Source: a virus
Length of the DNA stretch: 64,000 nucleotides
IMG/VR virus record: IMGVR_UViG_3300013947_000003
Coordinates: 32,001-96,000 of that record
Strand: one strand, 5' to 3'
Each line of letters starts with the position of its first letter. Position 1 is the stretch's first letter. The notes beneath the pieces were generated by a model. It saw only the letters and a list, made by a program, of their open reading frames with translations. It did no database searches and had not been told where the DNA came from. Positions 8,718 through 64,000 of the stretch are shown piece after piece. The translations under genes and the position numbers were made by a program.

Positions 8718-8719
8718 AA

Positions 8720-17081: not shown

Positions 17082-17095
17082 AATATTAAATTTAG

Positions 17096-17168
17096 TCGCC
17101 CCACTCAGAGTCGAACTGAGATCTTCAGATTTAGAGTCTGTAGTAATAAACCGTTATACTATAGGGCA
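17096..17168 (-). tRNA. suppressor tRNA, anticodon CTA (reads TAG); probably Gln-accepting
   Basis: Hand-folded 73-nt cloverleaf. Acceptor TGCCCTA/TGGGGCG (2 G-U pairs). Anticodon stem CAGA/TCTG with loop C-T-CTA-A-A. T arm CTCAG-TTCGACT-CTGAG. U1 and a weak 1:72 pair, as in bacterial tRNA-Gln. Confidence 0.85.
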
Positions 17169-26284: not shown

Positions 26285-26316
26285 CAATTAACAGTATTAA
26301 CTTAAAACTAAACAAA

Positions 26317-27243: not shown

Positions 27244-27317
27244 GGTCCTTTAGCTTAGTTGGTTAGAGCACCTGACTCATAATCAGGGAGTCGTAGGTTC
27301 AAGCCCTACAAGGACCA
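27244..27317 (+). tRNA. tRNA-Met/Ile2 type (anticodon CAT)
   Basis: Canonical cloverleaf GGTCCTT...CCTGA-CTCATAA-TCAGG...GTAGG-TTCAAGC-CCTAC-AAGGACC-A. Confidence 0.9.
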
Positions 27318-27363
27318 CTTCATTGTATTGTTGGTTTTAAGTGAAACAATTGGTTATTAACCA

Positions 27364-27431
27364 GGCTCTTTAGTTTAATGTAAAACATTCTATAGTATAG
27401 AAAGATGTAGGGTCATATCCTACAAGAGCTG
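27364..27431 (+). tRNA. tRNA-like gene with 5-nt anticodon loop
   Basis: Acceptor GGCTCTT/AAGAGCT. T arm GTAGG-GTCATAT-CCTAC. The anticodon arm TTCTA-tagta-TAGAA is 15 nt instead of 17. Confidence 0.35.
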
Positions 27432-40950: not shown

Positions 40951-40952
40951 TA

Positions 40953-41850: not shown

Positions 41851-43161
41851 GGTAAAAATAAAACTTTTTTTGTCATTTGGTTGATTAGGAATTTTTTATT
41901 AACTTTGCATAAAGATTATAAATTATGCAAAGAAAAGATAGAAAATTTAATAAAACTCCAGAATGGTTATACGAACAATATGTTTTAAAGGAAAAACCTA
42001 GGACAGAAATAGCCAAAGAATGTGGAGTATCTGAAGCTGGATTAAAAAGTGTTTTAATAAAATACAATATTAAAAAAATTCCATTTGTACGCCCTATAAA
42101 AGAAATAAAACAATATTTGCAAGAAGGAAAATCCGTTACTGAAATATCTAAATTATTAAAATGTGGTAAAACTACTATATATAGAGTAATGAAGGATTCA
42201 AATTTATCTATTAACTATACACCTGATTATAAACAATATGATAGTAGCAAAGACGAATTAATAATTTCACTATATTTAGAAGGATATTCTTCTACAGAAA
42301 TTGCGAAAGCTCTTAATAGTACACACACAACTATTATAAAGCATCTAAAACACAATAATATTCCCATAAGAAGTTTTGTAGAATGTCAATTTAATCACTT
42401 GAACAAAGAGATTCCTAAAGAGCTAATCTCTTATAAGTTATTACATCAGCTCTATATAATAGAGCATAAAAGCAAAAAAGAAATAGCAAATTCATTAAAT
42501 GTTGATGCTGGAACCATTAATACTGCTTTAAAAAAGTTTAATATTCATATAAGAGGAAATTCTGAGTCTAAAATAGGTTTAAAATGTGGAGAAAACCACC
42601 ATAATTGGAAAAATGGCATAACTCCATTACATTTAAGACTTAGAGAAGCTTTTGGGGTACAATTAACGAACCAAGTGCTGAAAAGAGATGGTTACAAGTG
42701 TACAAAATGTGGAACTAAAGGTAAATTACATGTACATCATATAAGACACTTTAAAGATATTTTATGGGAAATAATAAATGAACATCCGACTTTAGATATA
42801 CAAAAAGATGTAAATACTTTATATGACATTATAGTAAAGGATACTAGATTTTTAGATTTAAATAACTTAATAACCCTTTGCCCTAATTGTCATTATGAAG
42901 AGCATAGTAAGAAACATTGTTTTGCGGAGAATAAACGTAGTGAATTGCTGGAAAATCCAGAAGTGGACAATCAGCAGCCGAGCATTAATAACAATGAAGG
43001 TCCAGAGACTATTCCAAAAGGAAGTACACTCAAGTGAGTGGAAGTGCTACGCTCTATTTAGAATATTCTATTTAGATGAAGATATAGTCCAAACTCTATA
43101 GTAATATAGAGAAGTTCATAAGAGAACTGCATAGAATTAACGACTCTATGTGAATATAATG
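41851..43161 (+). mobile_element. group-I-type intron carrying an HNH endonuclease
   Basis: The 5' exon ends in T and the insert ends in G (aatG at 43161). Precise excision gives an in-frame NrdD. It has 74 nt plus 124 nt of non-coding flanks. Confidence 0.7.
41925..43037 (+). CDS. HNH homing endonuclease with repeated HTH modules
   Basis: HVHHIRHFKD...NLITLCPNCHYEEH, plus 4 or more sigma/HTH-like repeats (TEIAKECGVS, TEISKLLKCG, TEIAKALNST, KEIANSLNVD). Confidence 0.8.
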   Translation: MQRKDRKFNKTPEWLYEQYVLKEKPRTEIAKECGVSEAGLKSVLIKYNIKKIPFVRPIKEIKQYLQEGKSVTEISKLLKCGKTTIYRVMKDSNLSINYTPDYKQYDSSKDELIISLYLEGYSSTEIAKALNSTHTTIIKHLKHNNIPIRSFVECQFNHLNKEIPKELISYKLLHQLYIIEHKSKKEIANSLNVDAGTINTALKKFNIHIRGNSESKIGLKCGENHHNWKNGITPLHLRLREAFGVQLTNQVLKRDGYKCTKCGTKGKLHVHHIRHFKDILWEIINEHPTLDIQKDVNTLYDIIVKDTRFLDLNNLITLCPNCHYEEHSKKHCFAENKRSELLENPEVDNQQPSINNNEGPETIPKGSTLK

Positions 43162-44426
43162 TTACAAACGTTTCTTACTACGATAAATATTACTTCAAAT
43201 CTTTGTTTGAAAACTTTAAATATCCCGATGGAACAGAACCAGAATGGAAGGCTATAGATACTTTACAGAGAATGTTTATGCAACTTCATAGGGAATTAAG
43301 ACTTATAAAACCATTAACTTTCCCTGTAAGTACAATGGCTCTTGTATATGATGATCAAGACTATCTAGATAAAGAATATAAAGAGTTATGTGCAGAAGAA
43401 TGGGCAAAAGGAGGAAGTTTCTTCCTATATAGCAACAACAACCCAACATCTTTGGCAAGTTGCTGTAGAGTTTTGTCCGAAATAACCGATAATACCTTTA
43501 GTTCTACTACAGGTATGGCAGGTATTATGACTGGTTCTTGTAATGTCATTACATTGAATATCAATAGAATAGTACAAGATTGGTATAGAACACTTCCTAA
43601 TGGCTATGTATATGGAGATTATCAAGGTCTTAAAGATTATATTAAAGTCATATTAGAACGTGTATATAAGTATCACATAGCTTTCAAAACAATGCTCTAT
43701 GATTTAGAGAATAAAGGTATGTTTGCCGCATCTAATGGAGGATACATTTATATGAGAAAGCTATATAGTACTATAGGTATTATAGGGTACTTTGAAGCTG
43801 CTAAGTTTTTAGGAATTACTCCTAATAATAATGAAGAATATAAACACTTTTTACAAGCAATTCTTGGTGTAGTAAAAGAAGAAAATACAGCACATTCTAT
43901 AAGAGATAAAAAGCGCCCTATTTTATTTAATTTTGAAGCTATTCCTGGTGAGAATTTAGCAGTAAAATTATATAATTGGGATAAAAAAGACAACTATGTA
44001 GTTCCTAAAGATCAAAATTTGTATAATTGTTATTTCTATAATCCTTGGGATAATACGTCTATCTTAGATAAAATTAAACTGCATGGCAAAGAAACTAGTA
44101 AATTAACCTCAGGAGGCCAAGCTTGTCATCTTAATTTAGACGAACATCTATCTAAAAAGCAGTATTTACAACTTATGGATATATTTAGAACAGAAGGCGC
44201 TAATTATGTAACTTTTAATATACCTATGAGTGAGTGTAAAGAGTGTGGATGTACAGTTAATGCCCCCATTATAGAATGCCCTAAGTGCAAGTCTAAAAAT
44301 ATAAAGTGGTGGACGCGCATAATTGGTTATCTTACCAGTGTAGATGCTTGGTCTAAACCTAGACAAGAAGAGTTTAAAAAGAGAGTATATGCTAAAATAT
44401 CTAGAGACACAGATAACATTCAGTGA
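43162..44426 (+). CDS. nrdD: NrdD, exon 2
   Basis: C-terminal CKECGC...CPKC zinc site and the glycyl-radical motif TRIIGYL. Confidence 0.8.
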
Positions 44427-44865
44427 AATACCTGATGAAGTTGTGTTATGTATCAACATAACAGGATGCCCCAATTATTGTGAAGGTTGCCATAGTCCTC
44501 AATTACTTGAGGATATTGGAGAGCCCCTTGATCTCGAGCATTTAACAAATCTTATTGATGCTAGTATAGGCATTACTTGTGTATGTTTTATGGGTGGTGA
44601 TGCTAATCCCAGTGAAGTAGATGACATAGCACAGGATATTAAAGAATACTATCCAAAGCTTAAAGTGGGGTGGTATAGTGGGAAAAACACAATAAGTAAA
44701 GAAATCAGCTTATATTATTTTGATTATATTAAAGTGGGTCCTTATATAAAAGATTTGGGGCCGCTTAATTCAAAAACAACAAACCAAAAAATGTATCAGG
44801 TAATACATACAAGTGTTGGTAAGGATAAATTAATAGATATTACACATAAATTCTGGAAAGTATGA
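44389..44865 (+). CDS. nrdG: NrdG activating enzyme (radical SAM)
   Basis: CPNYCEGC (CxxxCxxC) cluster motif. The ATG at 44389 was chosen over the track start at 44344, which overlaps nrdD by 83 nt. Confidence 0.75.
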   Translation: MLKYLETQITFSEIPDEVVLCINITGCPNYCEGCHSPQLLEDIGEPLDLEHLTNLIDASIGITCVCFMGGDANPSEVDDIAQDIKEYYPKLKVGWYSGKNTISKEISLYYFDYIKVGPYIKDLGPLNSKTTNQKMYQVIHTSVGKDKLIDITHKFWKV

Positions 44866-45044
44866 TTAAGAAAATTCATAAAGAATATTTAGAAGGGGAT
44901 TACGCTATATGTATATCCACATTAAAAATTTTTGGCATAACGATATATGTTAATAGAACATATACAACTAATAAAAACATCATTTCTTCATTAACTAAAT
45001 TAAAAACTAAAACATTAGGATTTAACAATGAAATTAAAGATTAA
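44862..45044 (+). CDS. hypothetical small protein
   Basis: Track ORF with an ATGA junction. Confidence 0.4.
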   Translation: MIKKIHKEYLEGDYAICISTLKIFGITIYVNRTYTTNKNIISSLTKLKTKTLGFNNEIKD

Positions 45045-45558
45045 AATTAAAAAGATAGGTAATGCCTATCTACCTAGAGAAATTAAAAAGGGAGACTGGA
45101 TTGATCTTTCTGCTGCATGTGATGTTTATTTTAAAGGCCCTCAATCCGAGACTTTAAAGCGTAAAACAGTTAATGGCATAACAACTGCCACTAGAGATGT
45201 TGTTTTTAGTAAAAAGATGGTACCTCTTGGTGTAGCAATGAAATTGCCTAAAGGGTTTGAAGCCCTATTAATAGTTAGAAGTAGTCTACAAAAACAATGG
45301 CTTATTCAAGCTAATTCTATGGGTATTATAGACAATAGTTATAATGGTAATAATGATGAATGGAAACTGCCATTAATTGCTTTAAAGGAGACAGTAATAC
45401 CTGAAGGCACAAGAGTGTGTCAATTTAGAATTCAACTTAGTCAAAAAGCTAATATTTGGCAAAAGTTGAAATGGTTATTTACTAATGGTATTAAAATAGA
45501 AGAAGTGCAAGATTTAGAGAATGTTGATAGAGGAGGCTTTGGAAGCACTGGAGTATGA
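45028..45558 (+). CDS. dut: dUTPase
   Basis: Motif 3 GIIDNSYNG and motif 5 RGGFGSTG. Confidence 0.8.
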   Translation: MKLKIKIKKIGNAYLPREIKKGDWIDLSAACDVYFKGPQSETLKRKTVNGITTATRDVVFSKKMVPLGVAMKLPKGFEALLIVRSSLQKQWLIQANSMGIIDNSYNGNNDEWKLPLIALKETVIPEGTRVCQFRIQLSQKANIWQKLKWLFTNGIKIEEVQDLENVDRGGFGSTGV

Positions 45559-46076
45559 TGTTATGGGCAATAATTGGCTGCATGGCAGCATTTATTATAA
45601 TACTAACAATAAAGTTTATTGTATATAAACATATTAACTATATATCTTTACAAGAATCATTAAATCTTATAGGATTACCCGTGATAACTCTAGAATCTGA
45701 AGGACATAAGCTAAATTTCATTTTAGATACCGGAAGTAATGAATCTCATGTAAGTAAAGAAGCATTTGAGAAACTATGTGTAGAAAAACGTAAAACAGAA
45801 ACACAAGTATATGGAGCAGGAGGTATAGCATTGTCTGTAGGTAAAGCAGACATAGAATTTACATATAAAAATGCTACATATTTAACTACATTAATAATCT
45901 CCCCCTCCCTCGATGCTACTTTTAAAGCAATTAAAGATTCTGAAGGCGCTAGTATACACGGAATTTTAGGAAATGATTTCCTTATAAAATATTCTTATAT
46001 AATGGACTTTGAAAGTTTAGTTGTCTATTCTAAGCGAAATAAATATAAAATATTTTGGGACTGGTTTAAAATATAA
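45555..46076 (+). CDS. membrane-anchored retropepsin-like aspartic protease
   Basis: N-terminal TM helix, then FILDTGSNESHV (D-T-G) and ILGNDFL. Confidence 0.6.
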   Translation: MMLWAIIGCMAAFIIILTIKFIVYKHINYISLQESLNLIGLPVITLESEGHKLNFILDTGSNESHVSKEAFEKLCVEKRKTETQVYGAGGIALSVGKADIEFTYKNATYLTTLIISPSLDATFKAIKDSEGASIHGILGNDFLIKYSYIMDFESLVVYSKRNKYKIFWDWFKI

Positions 46077-46079
46077 TAA

Positions 46080-48119
46080 ATGGTATATTTAGTAACAACT
46101 GAAAATAGATTAGTTGATACTTCCTATAAGATAATAAGTGTTGAGGAGTCTTTAAAGCTCCTCAGCACATTATCTATAGTGGGTTTAGATACTGAAACCT
46201 CAGGGTTAGACTGCCACAATGACACATTATTATCTTTGCAATTAGGTTGCTATGATTTTCAAGTTGTAGTGGACTGCACTAAAATAAACATCCTACTATA
46301 TAAAGACTATCTAGAATCTAATAGAGAATTCTTGTTTTGGAATGCTAAATTTGATTTGAAATGGCTTTATAAATATAATATTATTCCTAAGAAAGTTTAT
46401 GATGGTTATTTAGCAGAAAAACTTATGTATTTAGGGTATCCTTCGGGGTATCACAGTATGTCGTTAAAATCTGCTGGTGAACAGTATTTAAACATAGAAT
46501 TGGATAAAACTATAAGAGGACAGATTATCTGGAAAGGCTTAACAGATGACGTTATTATATATGCAGCTAAAGACGTTCAATATCTAGAGAAAATAAAGAA
46601 TGCTCAATATAAAGAACTTAGTAAAAAAGAACTATTAACTGCTATAGAATATGAAAATAAGTTTGTCTTAGCACTAGCTTATGAAGAATTTTGTGGAGTA
46701 AAACTAGATCAAGAAAAGTGGTTAAATAAAATGAAATCAGATAAAGCAGCTTTAAATGAAGCAGAAACAGCTTTAAATAATTTCATTATAAATCTTGCTA
46801 AAACAGACAACAATTTTAAGAAATTTACGTTTATAAACACACAAGGAGATTTATTTGAAGGGTTTGATTTAACTCCTAAATGTACTATAAATTGGAATAG
46901 TGCGCAACAAGTAATTGAAGTATTTACTTTATTGGGATTTAATCTATTATCTAAAGATAAAAAAACTGGACAAATGAAATCTTCAGTTGATGCTAAAATA
47001 ATAAAACCACAAAAGGACTTATCACCTATTGCTCCTATATATCTCAAATATAAAGCAGCACAAAAAGTAGTGAGTACTTATGGTCAAAATGTTTTAGACC
47101 AAGTCGACAAAAAAACAGGAAGGCTCTATACGCAATTTAACCAACTTGGCGCAGATACAACTAGAATAACCTCAGGAGGAAAGGACGGGAAGAAGGAATA
47201 CATTAACTTCTTAAATATGCCGTCTGATGAAATGACTCGTTCTTGTTTTGTGGCAGAACTTAATAATAATTGGATATCAATAGATTATGTGGGTCAAGAA
47301 ACTTACTTAATGGCATCTATAGCAAATGATAAAGCTATTCTTAAAGAACTTAATGAAGGCTCTGGAGATATTCATTCTTTAACTGCCTATATGACATATA
47401 AAGAAATTCCTAGAGATACTCCTATTAAAGAAGTCAAGAAGAAATACCATAATCTTAGACAAGAAGCTAAAGGTATTGAATTTTCAATTAATTACGGCGG
47501 AAATGCAGACACTATAGCAAGAAATAAAGGAATACCTTTAGAAGAAGCTAATAAAATCTATAATGAATATATGTCGGGTTTTAAAGGACTTAAAAAATAT
47601 CAAAACTTTAGAAGAAAAGATTGGTTTGATAAAGGTTATATTTTATTAAGTCCATTAACAGGACATAAAGCATTTATATATGATTATGAAGACCTTAAAA
47701 CAACACAAGAATCTTTCAAAGAACCCGGATTTTGGGATTATTATAGAGAAATGAAAAAGAATTCTCCTATGTGTGATACTGTACAAAACGTAAAACACTT
47801 CTTTAAAAGAAAATCCGAAAATGAGAGGTGCAGTATTAACTTTCCTATACAAGCTGCAGGTTCTTTTTGTTTAAGAGTTTCTATGATTAATTTCTTTGAA
47901 TGGCTCAGAAAAGAAAATTTATTATTTAAAGTTCTTATATGTATAACTCCTTACGATGAATTTGATGTAGAAGCTCCTAAAGGAATCGCCGAAAGAGTTG
48001 CATTAAAGCTTAAAGAATTTATGGTAAAAGCTGGTGCATATTTTTGCGATAAATGCAAACTAGATGCCGATATAAGTTATGATAAAAATGGCCATCTTCC
48101 AACTTATTGGATACATTAA
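46080..48119 (+). CDS. family A DNA polymerase with 3'-5' exonuclease domain
   Basis: Exo I LDTETSGLD, motif A IDYVGQETYL, motif B RQEAKGIEFSINYG, motif C YDEFDV. Confidence 0.85.
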   Translation: MVYLVTTENRLVDTSYKIISVEESLKLLSTLSIVGLDTETSGLDCHNDTLLSLQLGCYDFQVVVDCTKINILLYKDYLESNREFLFWNAKFDLKWLYKYNIIPKKVYDGYLAEKLMYLGYPSGYHSMSLKSAGEQYLNIELDKTIRGQIIWKGLTDDVIIYAAKDVQYLEKIKNAQYKELSKKELLTAIEYENKFVLALAYEEFCGVKLDQEKWLNKMKSDKAALNEAETALNNFIINLAKTDNNFKKFTFINTQGDLFEGFDLTPKCTINWNSAQQVIEVFTLLGFNLLSKDKKTGQMKSSVDAKIIKPQKDLSPIAPIYLKYKAAQKVVSTYGQNVLDQVDKKTGRLYTQFNQLGADTTRITSGGKDGKKEYINFLNMPSDEMTRSCFVAELNNNWISIDYVGQETYLMASIANDKAILKELNEGSGDIHSLTAYMTYKEIPRDTPIKEVKKKYHNLRQEAKGIEFSINYGGNADTIARNKGIPLEEANKIYNEYMSGFKGLKKYQNFRRKDWFDKGYILLSPLTGHKAFIYDYEDLKTTQESFKEPGFWDYYREMKKNSPMCDTVQNVKHFFKRKSENERCSINFPIQAAGSFCLRVSMINFFEWLRKENLLFKVLICITPYDEFDVEAPKGIAERVALKLKEFMVKAGAYFCDKCKLDADISYDKNGHLPTYWIH

Positions 48120-48121
48120 TT

Positions 48122-48412
48122 ATGAAGAATAAAGAAGTATGTAAAGAATTTATCTGCCGTAGAGTAGCATCAGGGAGTAATTTAATTTCAACAGGGGATA
48201 AGTTATTTTCTTATAATACCTGTATAGCACAATGGTATCCTAATGGAGTAATATATAATGAAACTAAGTATTCATCTACTACCAGTAGGCATCAAAGCTA
48301 TTTAAAAAGTGCTATTACCCATAATATAGGATGGGAAAGAGCGGTAATAATAGATAATATAAATTTTAATACAAGAGACTTAACATCTGATTATGAAAGA
48401 GTATATATGTAA
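48122..48412 (+). CDS. hypothetical protein
   Basis: First ATG in track ORF 48107-48412. Confidence 0.5.
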   Translation: MKNKEVCKEFICRRVASGSNLISTGDKLFSYNTCIAQWYPNGVIYNETKYSSTTSRHQSYLKSAITHNIGWERAVIIDNINFNTRDLTSDYERVYM

Positions 48413-48788
48413 AAAAGATTTTTATATTGAGGATACACAGTTTGCTAAAGAAGGAGATCACGTTATATTAATGCCGGATAATAATACTGTAGTTAATACT
48501 AATGGTAACCAAAAAGTAACTTGTATGCCTCAAATTGTAGGGGATAAAGAATTTTTTACTCCCACATTTGAACGTATAAAACCTGACATGGTTAATTCTC
48601 CTTCTCATTATTCTTGGTTAAAAGATAAGTGTGGTATTGAAGTAATTGATATTGCAAGACATTTAGATTTTGACTTAGGTAATGCAATTAAATACATACT
48701 TAGAGCGGGGAGGAAGAGGGATGCAATAGAAGATCTAAAGAAGGCTATATGGTATTTAAATGATAAAATAAAACTATTAGAAAAATGA
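48393..48788 (+). CDS. DUF3310-like phage protein
   Basis: SPSHYS...IEVIDI...GNAIKYILRAGRK pattern, recalled from the DUF3310 family. Confidence 0.5.
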   Translation: MKEYICKKDFYIEDTQFAKEGDHVILMPDNNTVVNTNGNQKVTCMPQIVGDKEFFTPTFERIKPDMVNSPSHYSWLKDKCGIEVIDIARHLDFDLGNAIKYILRAGRKRDAIEDLKKAIWYLNDKIKLLEK

Positions 48789-49033
48789 AAATAATTAAAT
48801 TTGGTGCACCTTGGTGTGGTCAATGTAAGGTAATGGTTAGTGAACTCAAGGAAACACCTTTAGATGTTCCTGTTGAAGAAATTAGTGTAGATAATGATGA
48901 AAAAGATTTAACTACCTTATTCGGTGTTAGATCTCTTCCCACACTGATCTTACTTAAAGGTGATAATGAAATTAAACGTTGGGTAGGACTTACAAAGCCC
49001 TCGGAAATAAATGATTATATTAAATCTATATGA
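48785..49033 (+). CDS. thioredoxin
   Basis: WCGQC active site, 82 aa. Confidence 0.75.
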   Translation: MKIIKFGAPWCGQCKVMVSELKETPLDVPVEEISVDNDEKDLTTLFGVRSLPTLILLKGDNEIKRWVGLTKPSEINDYIKSI

Positions 49034-49156
49034 TTTGGGCATTAGCATTAATAGTACTTATAATACTATTTTGGATAATTAAAATAAGTATAGATATTAA
49101 ATACTTATTTGAAGAGTTTGAAAAACAGTATCCACATTTATTTGACCCTAAAGACG

Positions 49157-49957
49157 ATGAAACTGATTAAACCTTCAATAGAAATAATGCATATACCTCT
49201 TGATTTTAAAGAGGCTTTAGAACAGATAGAATTGGCAGCAAGAGTGTGCTATAAATCAGAATGTAATATACAATATGATGATGATAATAGAAGTATTACT
49301 GCTGAACCATTTGTATCTAAATTATTAAATGTATATAAACATAGAAGTGTTGCAGAACACGGTACTATATATTTAACAGTACCTAAAAATTGTAGTGTGT
49401 CAGAACTTGATTGGATATGGTTTTTAGTAGCAAATCCATACACCAAATTTAATGAAGATGATAATTATGATTATATAACAACTAATTATAGAGTTATAGT
49501 CGATAATAATCTACAAAAAGCGCTTAAATTTCTAAGTACACCCACCGATAAACATGAAAAAAGAATTACTGTAAGGTTTATATGTAGTAGAGTATGTGCA
49601 CAACAGTTAACAAGACATAGATGTGCTTCATTTTCTATGGAAAGTCAACGTTTTTGCTCCTATGATAAGGGTAAATTTAATAATGAAATTACTTTTATTT
49701 ATCTTGGTGAAGGCATAAATCCTATACAAGCAGAGTTATACCAACATGCTGAACATGTTTATATGGAGCTTATAGATAAAGGTTTTAAACCTCAAGAAGC
49801 AAGAATGGTTTTACCTAACGCTACTAAAACTGAACTAGTAATGACCGCTTTTCAAAGTGATTGGAGTAACATATTTGAATTACGTTGCTCTAATAAAGCA
49901 GACGAGGAAATTAGATTATTATGTACAACACTTAAAGAAAAAATAAATGCGTATTAA
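49157..49957 (+). CDS. thyX: FAD-dependent thymidylate synthase ThyX
   Basis: Exact ThyX signature RHRCASFSMESQR (RHRxxSxxxxSxR). The ATG at 49157 lies within track ORF 49109-49957. Confidence 0.85.
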   Translation: MKLIKPSIEIMHIPLDFKEALEQIELAARVCYKSECNIQYDDDNRSITAEPFVSKLLNVYKHRSVAEHGTIYLTVPKNCSVSELDWIWFLVANPYTKFNEDDNYDYITTNYRVIVDNNLQKALKFLSTPTDKHEKRITVRFICSRVCAQQLTRHRCASFSMESQRFCSYDKGKFNNEITFIYLGEGINPIQAELYQHAEHVYMELIDKGFKPQEARMVLPNATKTELVMTAFQSDWSNIFELRCSNKADEEIRLLCTTLKEKINAY

Positions 49958-50174
49958 AACTAATTGGAATTTATATATTAAAGATTTAAAAGAAAAACCC
50001 TTATATGCAGAATGTATAATAGAGAAGAAGGGGGAAAAATACCCCGAAGATGTTATATATTCTTTTAATCCTAGAGATAAAGAACATTTCGATTCTGTAG
50101 AAGAGTTTATTAAATTCATTAAAAAAAGTAAAAGTGAGTTCGAATTGATAGATTGTTATTTTAAGAGTAAATGA
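49947..50174 (+). CDS. hypothetical protein
   Basis: Track ORF. Confidence 0.45.
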   Translation: MRIKTNWNLYIKDLKEKPLYAECIIEKKGEKYPEDVIYSFNPRDKEHFDSVEEFIKFIKKSKSEFELIDCYFKSK

Positions 50175-50247
50175 TTATAGGGGGAGGAGAAAGAATTATT
50201 TCTTCTCCTCTTCCCCTATTCCTAATTTAGATATTATAATCAGTAAC

Positions 50248-50652
50248 ATGTTTAAGAAGTTAAAGAAAAAAATTAAATTGTGGAATGAATACCACAATCC
50301 ATTTTTTCCATGGTATAAAGCAAGAAAAAAGTTTAAAAGACCTAAAGCACATTTTATATATGAAAAAAATGTATGGTTTTACGGAATGCCTATTAATAAG
50401 GAATTATATAATCCTATTTTAAGTATTCATTTGTCTTCCTTAGGTTGGAAAACCAAGTATGAAATGTTTAGGCATGAATGGGATCCATATATAGATATTT
50501 GCTTCTTTAGAAAATATCACTTTATGTGGGTTTTCAATTATGCTAAAACTATTGAAAATAAAGCAACCGACGAAGATTTTAATAAGTCTTATACTGATAA
50601 TATATATTATTGGGAATCAATGTTAGAATATTTATATGGCAAAAAATTATAA
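50248..50652 (+). CDS. hypothetical protein
   Basis: Track ORF. Confidence 0.5.
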   Translation: MFKKLKKKIKLWNEYHNPFFPWYKARKKFKRPKAHFIYEKNVWFYGMPINKELYNPILSIHLSSLGWKTKYEMFRHEWDPYIDICFFRKYHFMWVFNYAKTIENKATDEDFNKSYTDNIYYWESMLEYLYGKKL

Positions 50653-50821
50653 ACTTTGGAATGTAGGAGAAAAAGTTGTAATAACCAGAACTGGACCTAA
50701 AAATAATGATTTAGGTAAAGAAGGAGTTATTACTTGTGTCAGAAATAGTTTTTGTAAAATACTTATTGATGGTAAAGAATACAACCATACTTACGGACAA
50801 TTTAAAAGAATTGAAGAATGA
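50636..50821 (+). CDS. hypothetical small protein
   Basis: Track ORF. Confidence 0.45.
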   Translation: MAKNYKLWNVGEKVVITRTGPKNNDLGKEGVITCVRNSFCKILIDGKEYNHTYGQFKRIEE

Positions 50822-51060
50822 AATTAACATATACTGATGGATGCACTACCTATAATTTAAGTATTGACGGTAAATGTGCAGAAGATCTTACTGTAGATGA
50901 AAAGAAAGAAATAATGAAATCATTAATTGACAAATATGAAGATATTTGTGATTTTAAAAATATGATTATAGATTTCCTTGAAATGAATGCAGAACCCGAA
51001 TTTAAATACCACTGTGATCAATGCGGTGATAGTGTTTATGAATATACTTTAGAGATATGA
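50818..51060 (+). CDS. hypothetical small protein (C-terminal CxxC)
   Basis: Track ORF with an ATGA junction. Confidence 0.45.
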   Translation: MKLTYTDGCTTYNLSIDGKCAEDLTVDEKKEIMKSLIDKYEDICDFKNMIIDFLEMNAEPEFKYHCDQCGDSVYEYTLEI

Positions 51061-54682: not shown

Positions 54683-54690
54683 TAATTTTG
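54683..54690 (+). promoter_or_regulatory. TAnnTTTG -7 box upstream of the giant gene
   Basis: TAATTTTG, 22 nt upstream of ATG 54713. Confidence 0.4.
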
Positions 54691-54712
54691 TACTATTAAA
54701 CAAAATATAAAT

Positions 54713-57700
54713 ATGGGAAAGTGTTATATAACATCTGACTTAGATAGAGCTGTAGCTAAAGCCGCCGGTAATTTCATGGGGAAAGGAAGTACAGCGCGGT
54801 ACTTTGCATATATGCGAGGGCTATATGATGAGAAAAATGGTGATTAGAATTGGAAAGCCATGAGTGTTGAAGAAGTAAAAAATCTTTTAACAAAATTTGA
54901 AGGAGATTTAAGAAAAGAAGATACTAGAAAAATAAAAGCGTCTGGTACAAATGCTTCTGATATGTTTGTACAACTTCAATAGGAAATTCCCGATGCAGTA
55001 ATTAGAGAAACTAGAATTAGCTGGATTAGTCACCTGTTTAGTGAAACTGTAGATAGAATAGCAGAAAATGACTCTAGGTCTTTGGGTCTGGATAGAAAAT
55101 TTATTATTAAAGGAACTATTGACGAAGAAGGTAATACTATTTTTGGATAGAGTTACATATTTAATGCTATGTATAGAATACTTGGATCAAAATTTACCAG
55201 TGCTTGGGATACATATAAAAGCACTGATTCAAATATAACAGAAGAATAGAAAAAACAAGCATTATATAAAGCACAGCAAATACGTTTAGTTTTAAGAAAT
55301 TGGCCAGCATTTGTAACTATTGCTAGGCTTAGAATTAGAGATATTGAAGGAATAAAGTTAGGAGCCTTTAATGATTTTACAGCTGATGCAGATGAAGGTA
55401 ATTTTGAAATAGAGAATTTACAAGAAAAAATTGATATAGAAGAAACTTCTATTAGAGAAGGGTGGTAGGAAATAGCAGAATCTATGTCAGCATATGCTTC
55501 AATAGGCGCAGAAGTTAGAGAACTACTAGCTTCTATACCACAACGTAATTAGTTTGGAGAGGTGGAAAAAGATGATTTAGGCAACACTAAGTATTTAGAT
55601 CCTTTATAGGTACACCAGACTTTATTAGATGCAGTAAGAGGTTCTACTTCTGAAGCAAGTATGCTTAGAAAGCTTACAAAATATGTTAATTCTCAGTATA
55701 AGGAAAGTCATAGTAAAACAGGAGCAAATAGAAGAAGATATTGGTTAGCCCCTATATTAGATAAGTTGACTTTATCTGTAGAAGATGATGATGGTGGAAT
55801 TACTATATTTGAAACTACTTAGGATTATCTAGATGCACTATCGGAAGAGCAAAAAAAACTAGCAGTAGCAATTGCTTAGGGAGATTAGGAAAACATAGAA
55901 ATACTAACTGACAATATAGAAGGTATGAAAGAATCTGTAGAAAGAGCAGCAAGGTTAAGAAGTAAAGTTTTTGCCGATTTAAAGCGCAATTTTCAACCTT
56001 TATATGTAGTACAGGAAGTTTTTGAGAAAGGGGTACATTATTTAAAAACTACATGTTTAAATGATAAAAAAGGTTTCAGTTTTTCAGAATAGGCACAAGC
56101 AAATCTAAAGAGAGGGCGTTCTGAAAAAGATGAAACTAACCCTCTTATTTCTAAAAGAGGAAGTAATGCACTTCCATAGGTTAGCAAAGAAAATGTAGAT
56201 GCACTTGCAAAATTTATAGAAAACAAATTCATTAAGGGTGAAAATGTAGATCTTATTAGTGGTAAATCATCATCGTGGTTTATGACAAAATCTGAGGATG
56301 AAAGCACTAAATAGGAAAAAATATCTGCAGTTCAGTATATTGGCAAGACTCTTGGATTTAATATTTCAAACGAAGCTGCTACTAAGATTGTAACAAATTC
56401 TAGATATGCAAAGAGATTTCAAACTGCCATGTAGAACCTTCATAAATATGGATTAACCCATTCTTAGATGGCCAAACAATTTAAAAATGGAGGAAGTTTA
56501 AATATTATTGACTTTTTAAATGTTAAACCGGGAGGTTCTGTAAGTGAAAAAGGTGCAGTTACCGAAGCAATCGAGGTAATAGGTGATGTAATATCTGCAG
56601 TAACAACTACCTAGGAAGTACGAGTTTCCTATAAAGATAAAAAAGGTAAAAATACAATGTTATCCAGTGATGTATTGCCTTCCTATTTAGGAGATTTTGT
56701 AGAAGACATTAAGGAATTTGTTGATAATAAAGATACTGCAGGTCTTAGAAGTTTCCTTGAAGAGAGGTACTTTAATAACTGTCCAATGTTTGCTGTAAAA
56801 GATGAAAATGGAAACTGGAAAATCCATAATATATGGTTAAGAGAATTATATAATTCAGATCTTTCTGAAGACGGAAATTTTGCAGAAATATTTGGCTCAT
56901 TTAGACTTTTAGGGGACTCTAAAAATACAGGCGCTAAAAGGTTTGAAAACTATACTAAAAAACGTCATGCCTGGTCAATGCTGGAGTTGTTTTTAGCCCC
57001 AAGAAAACTTGCAGGCACAAAAGATAACAAAAAGGATTATGCTAATTATCCTTTATTTGTTTTAGGAGATAGTGGTGTTTGTAAAAATATAACTGCAAAA
57101 TATTATACAAGAGATACAGTAATGAAAGAGCTTGTGAGTCTAGCAAATACTGAAGTTGAACGTGCTAGATTGGTTTTAGAAATGAACCAAACATGTGAAT
57201 TAAATGGTTGGGAAAAGCTGGAAACTTTTAGTGATGAAAATGCAGTATTAAAATTTACTTCTTTGCCCTTTTTAAATGATTACTTAGAGCTGAGAAAAGT
57301 TTAGGAAGTCAACCCCATAACCCAGGAGACAAAAACTGTTATAAAAGTATTTGATAAATTATCAGAAGAAGAAAAAGACTAGGGTAAAAAGGCTCAGGTT
57401 GTAAATGATGTTTATATAGAAACTTGCATAAGACAAGCCATTGATAGGGATTTTGAAAATTTCTATAGACAGATAAGTGGAAATGAGGCTTTGAAATCAG
57501 ATTCAGATATGGGGCTTACAAATCTAAACTCTGGTAATAATGTTCCCTTATATTTAAGTGGGTTTTTGACAAAAAAGGAAATAGCAGATGCGCCAGAGAA
57601 AAGTAAAGAAGAAATGCAGGCATTACTAAAAGAAAGGGTAAAAGATTTCTATGCTAATTATAAATTAGCAACAGCTTGTCAATTATAGATGTTTACTATA

Positions 57701-59503
57701 GATGCAGGTTTTTATGGTAATACTGAAAATTTACAAAAAAGGTATAAAGAACTGCATGCTCCTGGAACAAAGGTATCAGATGATGCATTAGATTGGAAAC
57801 TCGATAAACTTGCTATAGAAAACGGCGAAGAGCGTGTAGTATACTTTGATGACATAAGTATAAGTGCAGATGAAATGGATCCCGGATTTATGGATATTAT
57901 TAAAGCTAGATTTGGAACTAGCGATCCAAGTGTTGTAGATGCCTATACTAAGAATACTTTAACTGATGGCCAGGGTTATAGAACTCTAGAAAGCTATAGA
58001 AAAGTTATGATTGCTGCAGGTAAATGGAACGACTATCTAGAGCAGACTTATGATAAGATACAAGTCATCAGAGACAGAATGAGAGCAACAGGAAAAGAGC
58101 AGTTAGAGCCTGAAGAAATAACATAGTTGACGTAGTTGTTCGTAATATTCCAGCCATTAAAACCTTATTTATATACAATTGAAGATATTGGTGTAAGTAA
58201 CGGTAGAATGCTTAAAGTTCCTGTACAACATAAATATGCAGAAGTTATTATTATTCCTGAACTTTGTGTCCCCGGCTCTAACCTTCGCGCTTTGGGAGAA
58301 GCTATGGAAGAAAATAATATAGATGTAGTTTGTTCTACTAAATGTGTTAAAGTGGGATCATTTGGATCTATGGCTTTAGACTTTAAAACAAATGATAAAG
58401 GGCAGTTTGTAGATAAATTTGATGATATTATTAAAGGTATAGACGAAAATGGAAATATAATAGACTCTCCTAATGTAACAAGAACACAGCAACGTGCTTA
58501 TATAAAGAAGTATGGAGAAGAGGGATTACAAAGGATAACTCCTTAGACTATTAAAGATTCTATGCAAGTAATTAGAGATTCACAAGGCGCTTATGTTCAT
58601 AAATTAAAATATCGTGATTATAGAATACAAACTAATGTTCCTGCACATATAAATGCCTCTAATCTATTTGGCACTTAGATTAGAAAAATTATAATGACAG
58701 GAATTGATAAAAATGGTAACTATAGTAGTTATTTAGGAAATTCAGAAAAAGTAAATTTAGGAGACGGTTTAGTAGATCTTAATGGTAATAGGCTTATATA
58801 GTTCTACAATCAATTAATTGTTGCAAATGTTTTAGAAGGCTATCGTGATTTTGAAAAAGCTATAGATTCTATGGATAAAGTAAGTAAGTCTCTAATTTAG
58901 AATGTTATAGCTAATAGTAGAGAAGATGAAGCTAATATAATGGCGTATTGTCTTACAGGTGACGGTTAGTTTTTAGTTCCCTTATATGAGCTAGGAATAG
59001 AACATAATACATCACAAGCCCTAATTTCTTTATTTAAAAAAATGGTTAATAAATAGAGAATATAGGGAGGCGCATTAGTTTAGGCATCTGCTTGGGGAAT
59101 AACTAAAATTGAAGAGGGATCTAAAGATTATGGCGATCTAGACTGGCATACTGTTGAAGAAGGTAAAAATGGTAATATAGTCTATGGAGATTGTGAAATA
59201 CCATTTGATTTTAAATGGACAGATCAGTTCGGAAGAGAACATTAGTTAGATTTTAATGACTATTGTAATCCTGATGGTACTTTTAAAATGTCGGGAAGAA
59301 AACTTAATATAGGAGGCATTATTATAGATGAAACTTTAATAGAAAAAGACTATCCCGGAATACTTGATATAGTATCTTATAGAATACCTACAGAATCTCA
59401 ATACTCTATGATGCGTCTTAGAGTGAAAAGATGTACATTACCAACACAAGGAGGTGTTATCAGAGTTCCTGCACAAGGCACTACAACTGCAGGATTTGAC
59501 TTT
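54713..59503 (+). CDS. giant virion-RNAP-like protein, exon 1 (TAG read as sense)
   Basis: All track fragments (56657, 57491, 57689, 58136, 59288) share one frame with ATG 54713 and are separated only by TAG. 54713-56657 was translated by hand. The exon ends ...TTAGFDF. Confidence 0.75.
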
Positions 59504-60389
59504 AAGCTATATTGAAGTCATTAAATTGTGTTAATTGCTGGGAACCCTTATAAAAGTCATCAATTTATATGGAAATCAGCAGCCAAGCTAGTTGAAATAC
59601 TAGAAGGTTCAACGACTAAATAAATCATAGAAATAACATACGTTAATCGTTATGAAAAGTAAATTAAATAAAGATAGTAGAAATTTATTAATAGGATTAT
59701 TATTAGGAGATGGTACAATATCTAATAATAATGTGTTTAAAATAGCCCATTCAGAGAAGCAAAAAGATTATTTAGAATGGAAAATAAAGCAGCTTAAAAA
59801 TCATGGAATACGAAATAATGGCGTTAAAACTTATATTAAAAAGGGTGGATATAATTCAGGAGTTCCTGTATATTACACACAGCTAAATATAATACCATTT
59901 ATTAAAGTGTTAAGACGTGTATTTTATAAAGGCAAGAAAATTATTGGAAATAGGAAGTTATTAAATAGATTAAATGCTTTAGGTATTGCCGTTTGGTATA
60001 TGGATGATGGGCATATAAATATTAGAAAGTACAATGGAAAACCTTGTGGATTTTATATAAAAATCTCCACATGTGAACCTAAAGAAGAGGTACAAATAAT
60101 AATAGACTATTTCAAAGAAGTTTGGGGAATAAATTTCTACATGTTTCATGAAGGTCATAAAGAGAATAGCTATTCTTTATGTTGTGGTGCTAAAGAGGGG
60201 ATTAAATTTATAGAAATTGTTAAACCTTATGTACAGCAAGTTCCTTCAATGATATATAAAATAAATTATGATTTATCTCAAAGAAAAAGAAGTATTTGAG
60301 AGTACCCTTAAATGGGGAAATGCACAACATGCTACTAGCATGAAGATATAGTCTACTCTTTACAAAATAAATAATGTAAAGTATATAGG
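59504..60389 (+). mobile_element. group-I-type intron carrying a LAGLIDADG endonuclease
   Basis: Exon 1 ends in T (gacttT) and the insert ends in G (tatagG). Excision joins GFDF to DIDKLYL in frame. Confidence 0.7.
59652..60299 (+). CDS. LAGLIDADG homing endonuclease (double-motif)
   Basis: LLIGLLLGDGTIS and GIAVWYMDDGHIN. Confidence 0.85.
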   Translation: MKSKLNKDSRNLLIGLLLGDGTISNNNVFKIAHSEKQKDYLEWKIKQLKNHGIRNNGVKTYIKKGGYNSGVPVYYTQLNIIPFIKVLRRVFYKGKKIIGNRKLLNRLNALGIAVWYMDDGHINIRKYNGKPCGFYIKISTCEPKEEVQIIIDYFKEVWGINFYMFHEGHKENSYSLCCGAKEGIKFIEIVKPYVQQVPSMIYKINYDLSQRKRSI

Positions 60390-63374
60390 GATATTGACAA
60401 ATTATATTTAATGCGTAAATAGTTTTCTTTTGTATAGCGTTATGAAAGTGAAGATGAAGATATAACTGAAGAAGAAAAAAACACAGTATGGGCTAAAATT
60501 TATAATGAAAACCCGTCAATTAAAAATCATTTAGAACAAACAAAAAAATAGTGGGAAGAAAATCCCGCAAATAAAAATAAGTCTCACAAGAAGTCATTAA
60601 ATTCCTTTTGGGATGAAAGCGAGTATTTAAAGAATAATTATGATAAGAATGAAATTTTTAGTAATGCATTATTGGACTTAATAAATCAAGGAGTTCTTGC
60701 CCCATTAGAAAAAATAGTAAACATAACTCGTAAACAAACTTATAAGTATAACCTTAATAAAAGGGTTATGGATAGTTATGATGAAACTGGTAAGTTAATA
60801 AGAGGTAATAATAGAATTGCTAGGAACAATATGCTTTTAGATCTTATTATAAAGCGTCTTGAAGATCCTGAAACTCTTGATGAAAGATTTCAGCCGGGTG
60901 AGTTTAAAAATGCAAAGCAGTCTGCTAAAATAATGCGTATATTAACACTGTCAGATAAATCATTTGAAGATTATGTACTTAATGGGAAAAAAATGAACTT
61001 TTCTGAAATAGAAAATAGTGCTAACAAAATTGCAGACCCAAAACCTAACTATGATTATACTGACCCCTTGACATTATTAACTTATAATGAGTAGAATTAG
61101 GTTGCAGGAAAATTAATTGGTATATTTGCAAACCAAAATGTAAACTATGCTATTTCTACAATGTTATACAAATATAATCTTAATAGCCCTATAGCTTTTG
61201 GAGATCATATGCAGGGATTGTCAGATTTAATACATGCTCCTTCTGCTAAAAAAACTTGTGCCGAACTTCTTTCTGCATCTGTAGATGCTGTTAAAGATCC
61301 TGTATTGAATTATTTAAATCTCAATGAGATTACTGCTAATGCTGCAGCAGTATTAGCTAGATTGGGATATTCTACTACAGAAATAGGGTTACTATTAAAT
61401 TAGCCGGTAATTAAAGATCTGTGCTAGTTTGCATTAAATAGTGGTAGAAGTACTAGTAGTGCTTTAAACCATTATATGAAGAAATATGCAGGAATAAAGC
61501 TTGTTGGTAATGAGTCTAAAACATATTTAACTTCTAATGCATTGGCAAATAACATAGTTATAAATAGTGCTAGAAATTCTGTAAAAGCTGAAGTTAGAAA
61601 TGCTGCAGATTTAAAAACCCAAAATTATGATTTTCAAAGAGGATAGGCTGCAGTACTATAGTTATTTTCTGAAATTTTAGGAGTTACTAAAGAAGTTTCA
61701 GACTTTGTAACAAATACTAAATTTACTGCTGCTAATGCTGTTTCTGTGTCATTTGGTAGCATGATTGCTCAATAGTTAAAAGTTAAAAGATATATAGAGG
61801 ATTAGGCAAATGCAGTATTAGACTAGAAAAACGGCAAATCCTCATTAAAAACATCTATGATAGTCTCTGAAATGCACGGTGATTCAAAAAGATTTATAGG
61901 AATGCCAAATATAAATGTTGATGATTGGAGTTATTTGAGATCCATCGATTTTAACCCCTTTGCATACGAACAATGTATGTTTGATATGAATAGAAGAGCA
62001 TTAGAAAAAATGGCAGACTACTTTCCTTATAGAAGTCCACTATATAAAGAAACAACAGACTACTTTGATGAAATGGCTAGCTATCCTATGGATGAAGATA
62101 CTGTAAATGATATTATACATGATATAATGGTGTATAAAATGGGGTCAATGCCTGGTAATAGATTTAATAAAAACACTCTTATAAAAACCAATGATGGACA
62201 AATTATGACATAGGAACAATACTATAAATATGTGTTTCCTGATATTATAATGAATTCATCAGAGTGGGAAACATCTTTTGATGAAAAGATAACAAATGCT
62301 TTAAAGTTACTAAATAACTATGGTATTTTATCAGTTGAGTCTCATAGTGAATGGTATACTAAAGATCGTATACCAACACGAAGAACTTGGTATACCTTTG
62401 GTTTAAGAGGGTCTGCTAATCTAGACTTTGATAAAAAACAAATAACAGCTTTATTTGAAGAACTTTATGATGATCCTAAAACAAGATGGTTTATTGAAGA
62501 CTTATATATGTATGACTTTTTCTAGGGAGAAAGGGGGTTTGGTCCCAAAAGTTTCACATCTTACTTGCCGCAGTCTATTACTGCTAATATAACTATGTAT
62601 ATTGATGGTAATGGTAACCCTGTAACATATAGAGATTGGTTAATTAAACATAAAAACGAAGGATTTGGAATAGAAGGTAATGCTAAAAATAATATAATAA
62701 CTTATTATATTAGAAGGCATAGTGACAACAGACGATTTGTAAAAGAGCTCTACTCTAATGACACCTATTATAACTATTTTAAAAACAAAATTAAGAATGA
62801 ACAAGGTGTTATTTCCTAGAGTATAGAGGTTTCTACAGACAAAGAATTTGAAAGTGTTGATAATAAAGGACGATCTGAAGTTATAGACAATCCATTATAT
62901 AATGCATAGAAAAATGCTTTTGTCCCTGCTTTTACTATAAATATAAATGGAACTGATTATTTGTATATATGTAAAAGTAACATAAGTGATTTTAATAAAC
63001 CTAATGGGCCATTAATGGAATATGAAAGATTTACCCCATTAAAGCCCGGATTTACTGAATATAATATAGGAACAACTTCTGAAGAAACAGAAAAAGAAAA
63101 AGCAGTAAACCAAGAAAATTTAATTGGAGTATTTGATGAATCAGATATGAAGAAGCCGGTTACATATGCATCACTATATGAATAGGCTAAAAAAGAAACA
63201 CAAGAAAAATCATATGAAGATGCAATAGTAGAAAAAATGGACCCGACACTTAGGAATATATATGAAACTTCTAGTGAAGAAGGTAAACGTGAAATTTTAA
63301 ATGATATTAAAAATAATAAAAAGTGCTATGCAATGAATGATGATGGCACTATTAGTAAAACTGAACTTTGTTAA
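60390..63374 (+). CDS. giant virion-RNAP-like protein, exon 2
   Basis: Fragments 60672, 61161, 61857, 62232, 62565 and 62961 are all in frame with 60390 and are separated only by TAG. First true stop is TAA 63372-63374. Confidence 0.75.
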
Positions 63375-63376
63375 TT

Positions 63377-64000
63377 ATGGGATTTTGTATAATTAAACCT
63401 AATAAACACCAATTATGGGATGAAATTGCAGAAGTAGTTGGAAATGAAAACAGAGGGCTTATAAAATATTGGTATAATGTTGCTCACGATAATAGGTTTT
63501 TAGAAGCTTCTGCTAATGATATAGTCTTAAATGAGGAGGGGGAACCCACGTTCTCCTCCTTATTAAAGGCTGCTAATACAACAGAATATAATGAAAAAAT
63601 AAAAGAAACCCTTAATAAAAAAATAGGTGCAGGAGAGATGACATATAAAGAGGCTTGTGAAAAGCTGTTTAACTTTAATAAGAACTCTAATTATAATGAT
63701 AAATATCTAGCAACTATTCAAAGAACTGAGGGAGGGAAAGTGCGTTTATTCATAACAGAAAAGACAAACAAAACAACTAAAGACCTGTACAAACAATTAA
63801 AAAATGGTTCTATAGCAGAAAGATTGTAGGCAAAACTAAATGAATGTGGTGTTACCTATGAATTTCTTGAAAATGCTAAATTTGAAGGTAGATATAGTAC
63901 CATGAATAGTGAAAGGGTTCTTAATGGATTAAATGCTTTAATATCTATTAGAGATGGTCATATTGTAGATGAAACTTTAGCTGAAGAGGCAGGCCACTTT
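63377..64000 (+). CDS. next large late-type protein (partial; TAG read as sense)
   Basis: ATG 63377 lies 2 nt after the previous stop. The frame continues past TAG 63827 to the window edge. Confidence 0.55.

Follow-up and report, generated by a model that had tools for sequence, protein, structure and literature searches.

A probable mobile group I intron with a LAGLIDADG endonuclease gene in the catalytic DFDID motif of a crAss-like virion-type RNA polymerase gene

The window considered here, a stretch of 64,000 nucleotides (nt) from positions 32,001 to 96,000 of the IMG/VR virus record IMGVR_UViG_3300013947_000003, contains close to its end the gene for a virion-type RNA polymerase (RNAP) of a crAss-like phage, and this gene is interrupted by an insert of 886 nt (59504..60389, + strand) that carries an open reading frame (ORF) of its own and has the RNA core of a group I intron. 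When TAG is taken as a sense codon, long frames are found at 54686..59512 (30 TAG) and 60375..63371 (17 TAG), separated only by the 886 nt; with the standard code the whole RNAP region appears shattered into short frames. Exon 1 (54713..59503, +) starts at the first ATG, 54713, and is a TAG-sense open frame with 30 TAG that ends GGA TTT GAC TTT (G-F-D-F), exon 2 (60390..63374, +) begins GAT ATT GAC AAA (D-I-D-K) and is an open frame with 17 TAG and its stop at 63372-74. The spliced gene would have 2,591 codons and is without TAA or TGA.

The insert is preceded by T and its last base is G60389. Exon 1 ends at 59503 with ...ACT GCA GGA TTT GAC TTT, after which the frame runs AAG CTA TAT TGA and stops, and from 60390 exon 2 reads GAT ATT GAC AAA TTA TAT TTA ATG CGT AAA TAG. 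Joining 59503 to 60390 keeps the frame and gives TTAGFDF|DIDKLYLMRK, the predicted ligated junction being GGATTTGACTTT|GATATTGACAAA (...GFDF|DIDK...) and the predicted spliced-exon sequence across 59503/60390 being ...GGAUUUGACUUU|GAUAUUGACAAA.... An initial annotation made from the sequence had already described the 886-nt insert, the exon ends, the dying frame and the junction TTAGFDF|DIDKLYL, all of which hold to the base. It is apparent that the position is also that of a natural intron-less allele, as the related locus L056 (IMG/VR 3300045988_177920; 81% amino acid (aa) identity over 291 residues) has GGATTTGACTTTGATATTGACAAA without interruption, and its 24-nt stretch over the junction is the same as the ligated exons of the window. 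Because this intron-less relative matches the predicted ligation product and aligns with no gap at the junction, the position of the junction is fixed, and with it the terminal G (omega-G) at 60389 (+). The insert is thus in phase 0 within DFDID, with the Phe on one side and the second Asp on the other, and the DxDxD motif is split between its first and second Asp, as had been proposed. Over 59265-59601, which spans the exon 1-intron junction, contigs from two independent runs show zero differences and therefore the insert is no assembly artefact; neither the spliced nor the intron-less form was found in the low-depth contig sets, the only runs with the window sequence.

The identity of the interrupted gene was established with a profile of 17 spliced homologues, which matches chain A of 6VR4 in the Protein Data Bank (PDB), the DNA-dependent RNAP gp66 of phage phi14:2, with an E-value of 9e-60. 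The alignment covers chain residues 1188-1621, TGSDFDIDKMY is aligned residue for residue, and the DFDID of the window falls on DFDID of the solved enzyme, which bears out the earlier suggestion of a virion RNAP. A PHROGs search with the RNAP segment gave no match. The nearest genes in GenBank have 40% aa identity and belong to the Bacteroides phages DAC15, which is classified in Steigviridae, and DAC17, plus cr106_1 and cr126_1, all of them uninterrupted, and the nearest GenBank proteins are labelled 'putative RNA polymerase' in crAss001 and its relatives. The RNAP of phi14:2 is packaged in the virion and transcribes early genes (cited in PMC7886860), and from this homology and the late-gene (TAG-recoded) context of the window gene, the same packaging and the same role in early transcription would be expected of its product. 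The alignment of 17 homologues has 8 invariant columns only, these being S, G, R and P (of YRIP) and D, F, D and D (of DFDxD), and outside the motif the protein shows 15-43% identity between lineages. With the DFDxD columns invariant in an otherwise divergent RNAP, the intron sits in the sole stretch that never varies, which fits the general point, made in the initial annotation, that homing endonucleases target the most conserved sites.

The ORF within the insert (59652..60299, +) starts from an ATG of its own, 148 nt from the 5' end of the insert, is intact, and encodes a homing endonuclease of 215 aa of the single-chain, I-SceI-like LAGLIDADG type. Pfam LAGLIDADG_2 (PF03161) covers aa 11-181 of the 215 with an E-value of 3.7e-26 (92.5 bits against a cut-off of 25), the match to phrog_11023 has an E-value of 2e-22, and the closest solved structure is that of I-SceI (E 3e-5; PDB 1r7m, E 7e-5), in agreement with the family first assigned to it. 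As there are two LAGLIDADG motifs, LLIGLLLGDG (aa 12-21) and LGIAVWYMDDG (aa 110-120), the enzyme is a single-chain one, the second motif aligns with YWFMDDG of I-SceI, and the Asp that ends each motif is what we take to be the catalytic residue. Among 38 distinct homologues of the endonuclease no premature stop is found except recoded TAG. LAGLIDADG domains also occur in inteins, which are common in crAss-like phages (PMC7886860), and the insert could on that ground be read as an intein. The frame of exon 1 reaches TGA after 3 codons, though, the ORF has its own ATG and stop with LAGLIDADG_2 the only Pfam domain in it, and both of its flanks are explained by RNA structure; because the reading frames are not continuous across 59504-60389 the intein reading is refuted, and we give it practically no weight.

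The structure of the flanking RNA is that of a group I ribozyme into which the ORF has been placed between the 5' strand of P7 and the hairpin preceding the 3' strand of P3. The covariance scan that had been suggested for the insert was made on a region of 1.1 kb, and Intron_gpI (RF00028) gave two partial matches flanking the ORF, one at 59533-59620 (36.6 bits, E 1.8e-7) that takes in J3/4, P4, P5, P6 and the 5' strand of P7, the other at 60284-60381 (18.3 bits) that takes in P8, the GAAGAUAUAGUC strand of P7 and P9. The 5' half of the core (59526..59618, +), for which the Rfam match, the pair counts and the minimum free energy (MFE) fold agree, comprises the 5' strand of P3 (UUGUGU, 59526-31), P4 (UGCUGG, 59536-41, with UCAGCA, 59576-81), P5, P6 (GCC, 59582-84, with GGU, 59606-08), P6a and the 5' strand of P7 (GACUA, 59614-18). 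The 3' half (60304..60381, +), supported by the second Rfam match, compensatory changes and the MFE fold, comprises an extra hairpin (ACCC/GGGG, 60304-17), the 3' strand of P3 (GCACAA, 60322-27), P8 (CAUGCU/AGCAUG, 60328-42), the 3' strand of P7 (UAGUC, 60349-53) and P9 (CUUUACA/UGUAAAG, 60358-81). When the ORF is deleted, the MFE fold of the intron contains P1, P3, P4, P5, P6, P6a, the hairpin before the 3' strand of P3, P8 and P9.

The core helices are also maintained by covariation. In a MAFFT alignment of 23 distinct homologues P3, P4, P6, P7 and P8 are 98.3% paired (P7 as a pseudoknot), P5 and P9 having been left out of the pair scoring as their lengths vary, with P9 judged sequence by sequence. 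Double-change cells number 57, where shuffled alignments give 17.7±3 and none of 500 shuffles attains 57, and if the partners are slid by 1-3 columns at most 43% are paired. Compensatory changes are found in 5 of the 6 P3 pairs and 3 of the 4 P8 pairs. The core pattern GGTTCAACGACTAA...GAAGATATAGTC was tried as a means of counting the family and was rejected, it matched more than 117 contigs with only 2 of these in the RNAP motif, and being generic to phage group I introns it is unusable for the purpose.

The link between this core and the exons is provided by an internal guide sequence (59509..59520, +) that is complementary to both sides of UGACUUU|GAUAU. The last 7 nt of exon 1, UGACUUU (59497..59503, +), form the 5' strand of P1, they pair with GAAGUCA (59514-59520) so that the splice-site U59503 makes a U·G pair with G59514 at the 5' splice site, and the helix is formed in the MFE fold. 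Directly 5' of this P1 strand, AUAUU (59509-13) pairs with GAUAU (60390-94) as P10. The initial annotation had remarked that AAGCTATAT at the start of the intron echoes AAATTATAT early in exon 2, possibly as a guide pairing or a repair footprint; that a guide pairing exists here was correct, the partner was not, as it is the complementarity of AUAUU with GAUAU and no echo that matters. Exon and guide sequence covary across the family. A catalytic core with P7, the U·G pair in P1 and the omega-G together with P10 are the features by which group I introns are recognised, and all are present.

It is thus with high confidence that we regard 59504..60389 as a mobile group I intron with an I-SceI-like LAGLIDADG gene, inserted in phase 0 into the DFDID motif of the virion-type RNAP gene of a TAG-recoding crAss-like (Steigviridae-like) phage. 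Given the intron-less allele and 50 further loci with homologous inserts in the same motif, the insert is far beyond chance. Some observations do weigh against this reading. With the 2,591-aa product as a single query, phmmer returned nothing but noise from the PDB, and homology to RNAP required the profile; the window intron is under the Rfam gathering score of 50, a scan at the gathering threshold having found tRNAs only, and the ORF-deleted RNA folds with an MFE z-score of only -1.99. None of the RNA runs screened for the phage sequence contains it, so splicing is something that we infer, and the activity, target and cleavage site of the endonuclease are those presumed from its family membership. 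A whole-window Rfam scan by E-value also failed to report the intron, although the misses by Rfam are not evidence against it because the ORF of 648 nt splits the model.

The lack of RNA evidence and the sub-threshold Rfam score could also be accommodated if the insert were a decayed relic which no longer splices, or does so only with the help of host or maturase, in a genome that is defective or an assembly chimera. A relative, L044 (IMG/VR 3300010356_000998), that has a class-A-like 5' site (the site classes are described below) and P1 (GCGGAU/GUUCGC) with no G before exon 2 (...ATAATTT|TTCGACATAGAC) would be in keeping with decay in this family; other possible causes are an intron that ends in a base other than G and an error in sequencing. 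Set against this, the window copy keeps all its core helices and an intact endonuclease ORF, the rest of the 2,591-codon gene is free of TAA and TGA, the exon 1-intron junction is identical in two independent runs and 50 related loci retain the same architecture, which makes a relic very unlikely.

Another way to account for the locus is that the RNAP gene is split, with a free-standing endonuclease gene between two separately translated halves that assemble as subunits without RNA splicing. T4-like phages are known to have genes that a free-standing endonuclease gene has split, there is an ATG seven codons into exon 2, and the genomes of cr116_1, cr131_1 and bajarodcaudo virus 1 have been deposited with two RNAP coding sequences (CDSs) and a separate hypothetical or endonuclease CDS. 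However, the flanks of the ORF are a covarying group I core whose P1, P10 and terminal G fit the exon ends exactly, and exon 2 translated from its first ATG would be without D-I-D and exon 1 would end in D-F followed by 3 junk codons, breaking the only invariant motif. Versions of the insert without an ORF are likewise unexplained by a free-standing gene, and we consider a split gene extremely improbable. The deposited annotations are of interest in themselves: in GenBank NC_055882 (cr116_1, 39997-50862), NC_055902 (cr131_1, 47198-65316) and PQ006092 (53623-61806) the RNAP is given as two 'hypothetical protein' CDSs, the endonuclease ORF is labelled hypothetical or 'endonuclease' and the intron is unannotated. 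In cr116_1, the one case examined, the deposited start of the second CDS is an internal ATG, with the loss of a part of the catalytic motif.

If the element is a mobile group I intron, expression of the RNAP would proceed as follows. The late pre-mRNA would fold with both exon ends paired to the guide sequence (59509-59520). Attack by an external guanosine after U59503 would be followed by attack of the freed exon 1 after G60389, either by self-splicing or with a maturase. Ligation of the exons would re-create GAC UUU GAU AUU GAC and the full-length RNAP would be translated with TAG as Gln. Because the product of an unspliced RNA would stop 3 codons into the intron, without two of the three Asp, the phage probably depends on splicing. 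As to mobility, the endonuclease would be expected to cut intron-less alleles near the conserved GACTTTGATATTGA in co-infecting phages, and repair from the intron-bearing genome would copy in the intron along with a few flanking synonymous bases.

Potential targets for such a nuclease are common. Besides L056, the alleles of DAC15 and crAss001 are uninterrupted, and a motif scan of IMG/VR gave at least 416 contigs in which DFD[IV]DK of an RNAP homologue is uninterrupted. Among 57 distinct intron-less target 33-mers GACTTTGAT is present in 44, and the consensus of the intron-less target sequences is of the GGTTCTGACTTTGATATTGATAAA type. The synonymous positions of the target are unusually uniform (L057, L058, L062-L141), though the proteins are 23-48% identical to that of the window, save for the close relative L062. 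This uniformity may be the result of codon preference, of sampling from one clade, or of selection linked to the endonuclease and intron.

The window intron is not alone, as a scan of IMG/VR with the endonuclease protein returned 54 loci, and for 51 loci, including the window, unique splice sites could be assigned, the requirements being that U precedes the 5' site and G the 3' site, that P1 is paired and that the joined exons restore D[FY]DxD[KH]. The sites are three in number, all phase 0 and 3 nt apart. In class A (D|FDxD, 20 loci) exon 1 ends GAU and exon 2 starts UUYGAY, with a P1 of 8-13 base pairs (bp); in class B, to which the window belongs (DF|DxD, 14 loci), exon 1 ends GACUUU and exon 2 starts GAUAUY, with a P1 of 7-10 bp; in class C (DFD|xD, 17 loci) exon 1 ends UUCGAU and exon 2 starts RUNGAY, with a P1 of 6-9 bp. 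P1 and P10 are particular to each class, and in all three the guide sequence covaries with the exon; in class A, for example, ACUGGUUCGGAU pairs with GUUCGAACCAGU, ACAGGGUCUGAU with GUUUGACCCUGU and ACUGGCUCUGAU with GUUUGAGCCAGU. The classes cannot be converted into one another by an alternative reading because the moving codon is on one side of the intron only.

The family crosses taxonomic boundaries. A megablast search of GenBank phages gave a DNA match to the intron only, with the exons unmatched, in cr116_1 at 79% identity, where the intron splits the same RNAP gene one codon further on, and the GenBank members fall in two ICTV families, cr116_1 being in Steigviridae (class C) and cr131_1 in Suoliviridae. 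Introns of 296 nt that have no ORF are present at the class A site (GSD|YDIDK) of RNAP homologues in L211 (5586-5904, -) and L238 (985-1281, +), they score 78.8 and 73.6 bits, over the Rfam gathering score of 50, and are either a stage of the homing cycle at which the endonuclease is absent or a separate lineage that occupies this motif. Members with the same class B site as the window are also found in L045-L052 (contigs of 93-174 kb), which have an insertion of ~47 nt in the P1 loop, large P5/P6 extensions and an endonuclease with only 45-50% identity to that of the window; from the large size of the contigs these may be Zeta-like crAss phages. More distant relatives of the endonuclease (31-42% identity) lie in group I introns in L053 and L055, and because the flanks of these are without DFDID the endonuclease family occupies other genes too.

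That the introns have moved between genomes is suggested by the endonuclease proteins being 73-94% identical where the host RNAP flanks are 16-57% identical, with the window and L003, for example, sharing 82% identity in the endonuclease and 29% in the RNAP flank. The synonymous codons beside the intron are specific to the class. All 15 distinct junction sequences of class A have GAT for Asp1, as against 4 of 57 distinct intron-less targets, and all 13 of class C have TTC for Phe, as against 3 of the 57, whilst class B has the common intron-less form. This fits co-conversion during homing, a constraint from P1, or both.

Two accounts can be given of how one family came to occupy three adjacent sites. 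One proposal, which we advance tentatively and put a little short of an even chance, is that a single intron family has been repeatedly re-targeted among the codon-adjacent sites D|FDID, DF|DID and DFD|ID of the 15-nt motif, with the 5' leader being specific to the site and the core together with the endonuclease being a cassette that is exchanged between sites and families. The site-specific part is probably the guide leader of ~20-45 nt, the 3' tail being less so, and the families would be Steigviridae, Suoliviridae and probably others. In L005 (class C) and L014 (class A) the core and endonuclease are 90% identical, where the RNAP exons are 76-77% identical in DNA, the leaders 40% and the 3' tails 55%, and in L010 (class C) and L014 the core is 91% identical when the exons hardly align; with cores alike and termini or exons not, the central cassette has moved between introns at different sites. 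Re-targeting, if true, would mean that the target of the endonuclease is uncoupled from the splice site and would provide a natural series of insertion-point change, and would explain the 'unknown expression mechanism' proposed for RNAP genes disrupted within DxDxD.

The same data can be accounted for by old, independent colonisations of the three sites by distinct lineages, where the likeness across sites comes only from later gene conversion and no intron ever moved to a neighbouring site, and to this we give an even chance. The nearest neighbour of the 5' leader is of the same class in 42 of 42 comparisons and that of the core and endonuclease mostly so, in 36 of 42, which is what would be expected of separate lineages, and the exceptions, such as L005 and L014, resemble exchange of the central part. 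It is less easily reconciled with independent arrival that all three types belong to one family of ribozyme and endonuclease and have a 5' leader of the same layout, which implies a common single-site ancestor at some point, and that the B-type introns of L023, L026 and L027 have a 3' tail and a host clade in common with A-type introns. Candidate routes for the first shift of site are reverse splicing after a change in the guide, microhomology repair within the quasi-repeat GAU-UUY-GAU-AUU-GAU, and exchange of the leader. A search of the available literature on sliding of group I introns found nothing relevant.

The genetic code of the phage has a bearing on the intron as well. A suppressor tRNA with anticodon CUA is encoded at 17095..17168 (-) (ARAGORN, labelled Pyl; Rfam tRNA, 52.4 bits) and allows TAG to be read in the RNAP exons. 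That it is read as Gln is supported by L056, in which a TAG stands opposite a CAG (Gln) codon of the window. The endonuclease gene has 0 TAG in its 215 codons, against 47 in the ~2,600 of the host gene, where ~4 would be expected, and this deficit suggests either recent arrival from a phage with the standard code or selection for translation before suppression. In relatives the endonuclease has in-frame TAG only where the host RNAP exons are also TAG-recoded, and TAA or TGA is in no copy. The loci in which this tracking of the code was noted are L002, L012, L013, L016, L022-L027 and L040, of which L022 is class A. The endonuclease gene therefore seems to drift toward the code of its host, which could serve as a rough clock for the time an intron has been resident.

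Elsewhere in the window tRNA genes are found at 17095-17168 (-), 17422-17486 (-), 17566-17638 (-), 26199-26285 (+), 27244-27318 (+) and 27364-27431 (+), the set includes the CUA suppressor, Arg-UCU, Leu-UAA and Met, and two further tRNA-like matches were found by Rfam only. Sense TAG is confined to two blocks of large ORFs, 694-14221 (-) and 54686-63371 (+), with up to 21 TAG per ORF, and the central plus-strand block (28105-48785, +) is almost TAG-free. It is the division between early and late genes in code use that has been described in crAss-like phages. Directly after the RNAP stop a TAG-containing open frame (63365-64000, +) runs past the end of the window and probably represents the large gene that comes next in the transcription block.

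For those who annotate such genomes there is a practical consequence, in that at least 4 GenBank crAss-like genomes and dozens in IMG/VR have an RNAP deposited as two fragments and an orphan ORF, which the splice rules allow to be joined. Biologically, an enzyme needed in the cell to start crAss-like infection would be made only after RNA splicing, and the intron nuclease could plausibly, by analogy with PhiPA3, serve as a weapon against relatives that infect the same cell. The target is uninterrupted in the cultured phages DAC15, DAC17 and crAss001, which makes a laboratory test in Bacteroides feasible. The staggered sites, exchangeable cores, ORF-less relatives and tracking of the code together form an unusually complete natural record of how such introns home, change their target and adapt to a host that is recoded, and no description of the staggered sites, the exchanged core or the code-tracking endonuclease genes was found in the literature.

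Introns in the catalytic regions of essential phage genes have been known for some time, with td, nrdB and nrdD of T4 and the DNA polymerase genes of SPO1 and Bastille all having group I introns in which the ORF is looped out of the core. The introns of SPO1 and Bastille lie at different positions of one gene and their endonucleases, I-HmuI and I-BasI, reportedly recognise homologous sequences. The endonucleases of these T4, SPO1 and Bastille introns are of the GIY-YIG or HNH type and the SPO1 and Bastille sites are not known to be codon-adjacent, in contrast to the three sites within 6 nt described here, among which parts of the core are exchanged. In the type of its endonuclease the window intron is closer to the omega intron with I-SceI, where a group I intron likewise encodes a single-chain LAGLIDADG enzyme with two motifs and homes into a site of high conservation. 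That site, however, is in the organellar large subunit rRNA gene of yeast mitochondria rather than in a protein-coding gene of a phage, and the similarity of I-SceI to the window ORF is detectable over the C-terminal ~125 residues only.

In the gene that is interrupted the closest parallel is gp210 of PhiPA3, an RNAP gene in which an HNH endonuclease is carried by a putative group I intron (Birkholz et al., Science 2024, PMC11620839), so that in both cases a group I intron with a homing endonuclease is found in a phage RNAP gene at conserved Asp. The PhiPA3 endonuclease attacks the homologous gene of co-infecting PhiKZ and gives a competitive advantage (PMC11620839), and by analogy the window element likely has a comparable competitive role. 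The two differ in that PhiPA3 has an HNH enzyme in the multisubunit RNAP of a jumbo phage of Pseudomonas, whereas the window has a LAGLIDADG enzyme in the single-chain virion RNAP of a crAss-like phage, and in that the PhiPA3 site comes after two Asp of the beta subunit, with no staggered sites reported, whereas the window site is inside the Mg-binding DxDxD.

Within the crAss-like phages themselves introns and inteins have been described (Yutin et al., Nat Commun 2021, PMC7886860), a LAGLIDADG 'intron-encoded endonuclease maturase' is shown in the transcription gene block (Fig. 3 legend), and for RNAP ORFs of the Zeta group that are disrupted within DxDxD 'unknown expression mechanisms' were suggested, a statement repeated in a 2023 review (PMC10136315). 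Those phages share with the window the same order, TAG/TGA recoding and suppressor tRNAs; the difference is that introns were there recognised by protein domains, with no splice sites, RNA structure or variation of site, whereas here they are defined at the level of the base, including in L045-L052. The unusual nature of the locus stressed in the initial annotation is thus real but less than was implied, with catalytic-motif introns in essential phage genes documented (PMC11620839) and the LAGLIDADG intron of the crAss transcription block already drawn (PMC7886860). It is an element of a kind already known from crAss-like introns and the PhiPA3 RNAP intron, an ordinary selfish element in a striking place.

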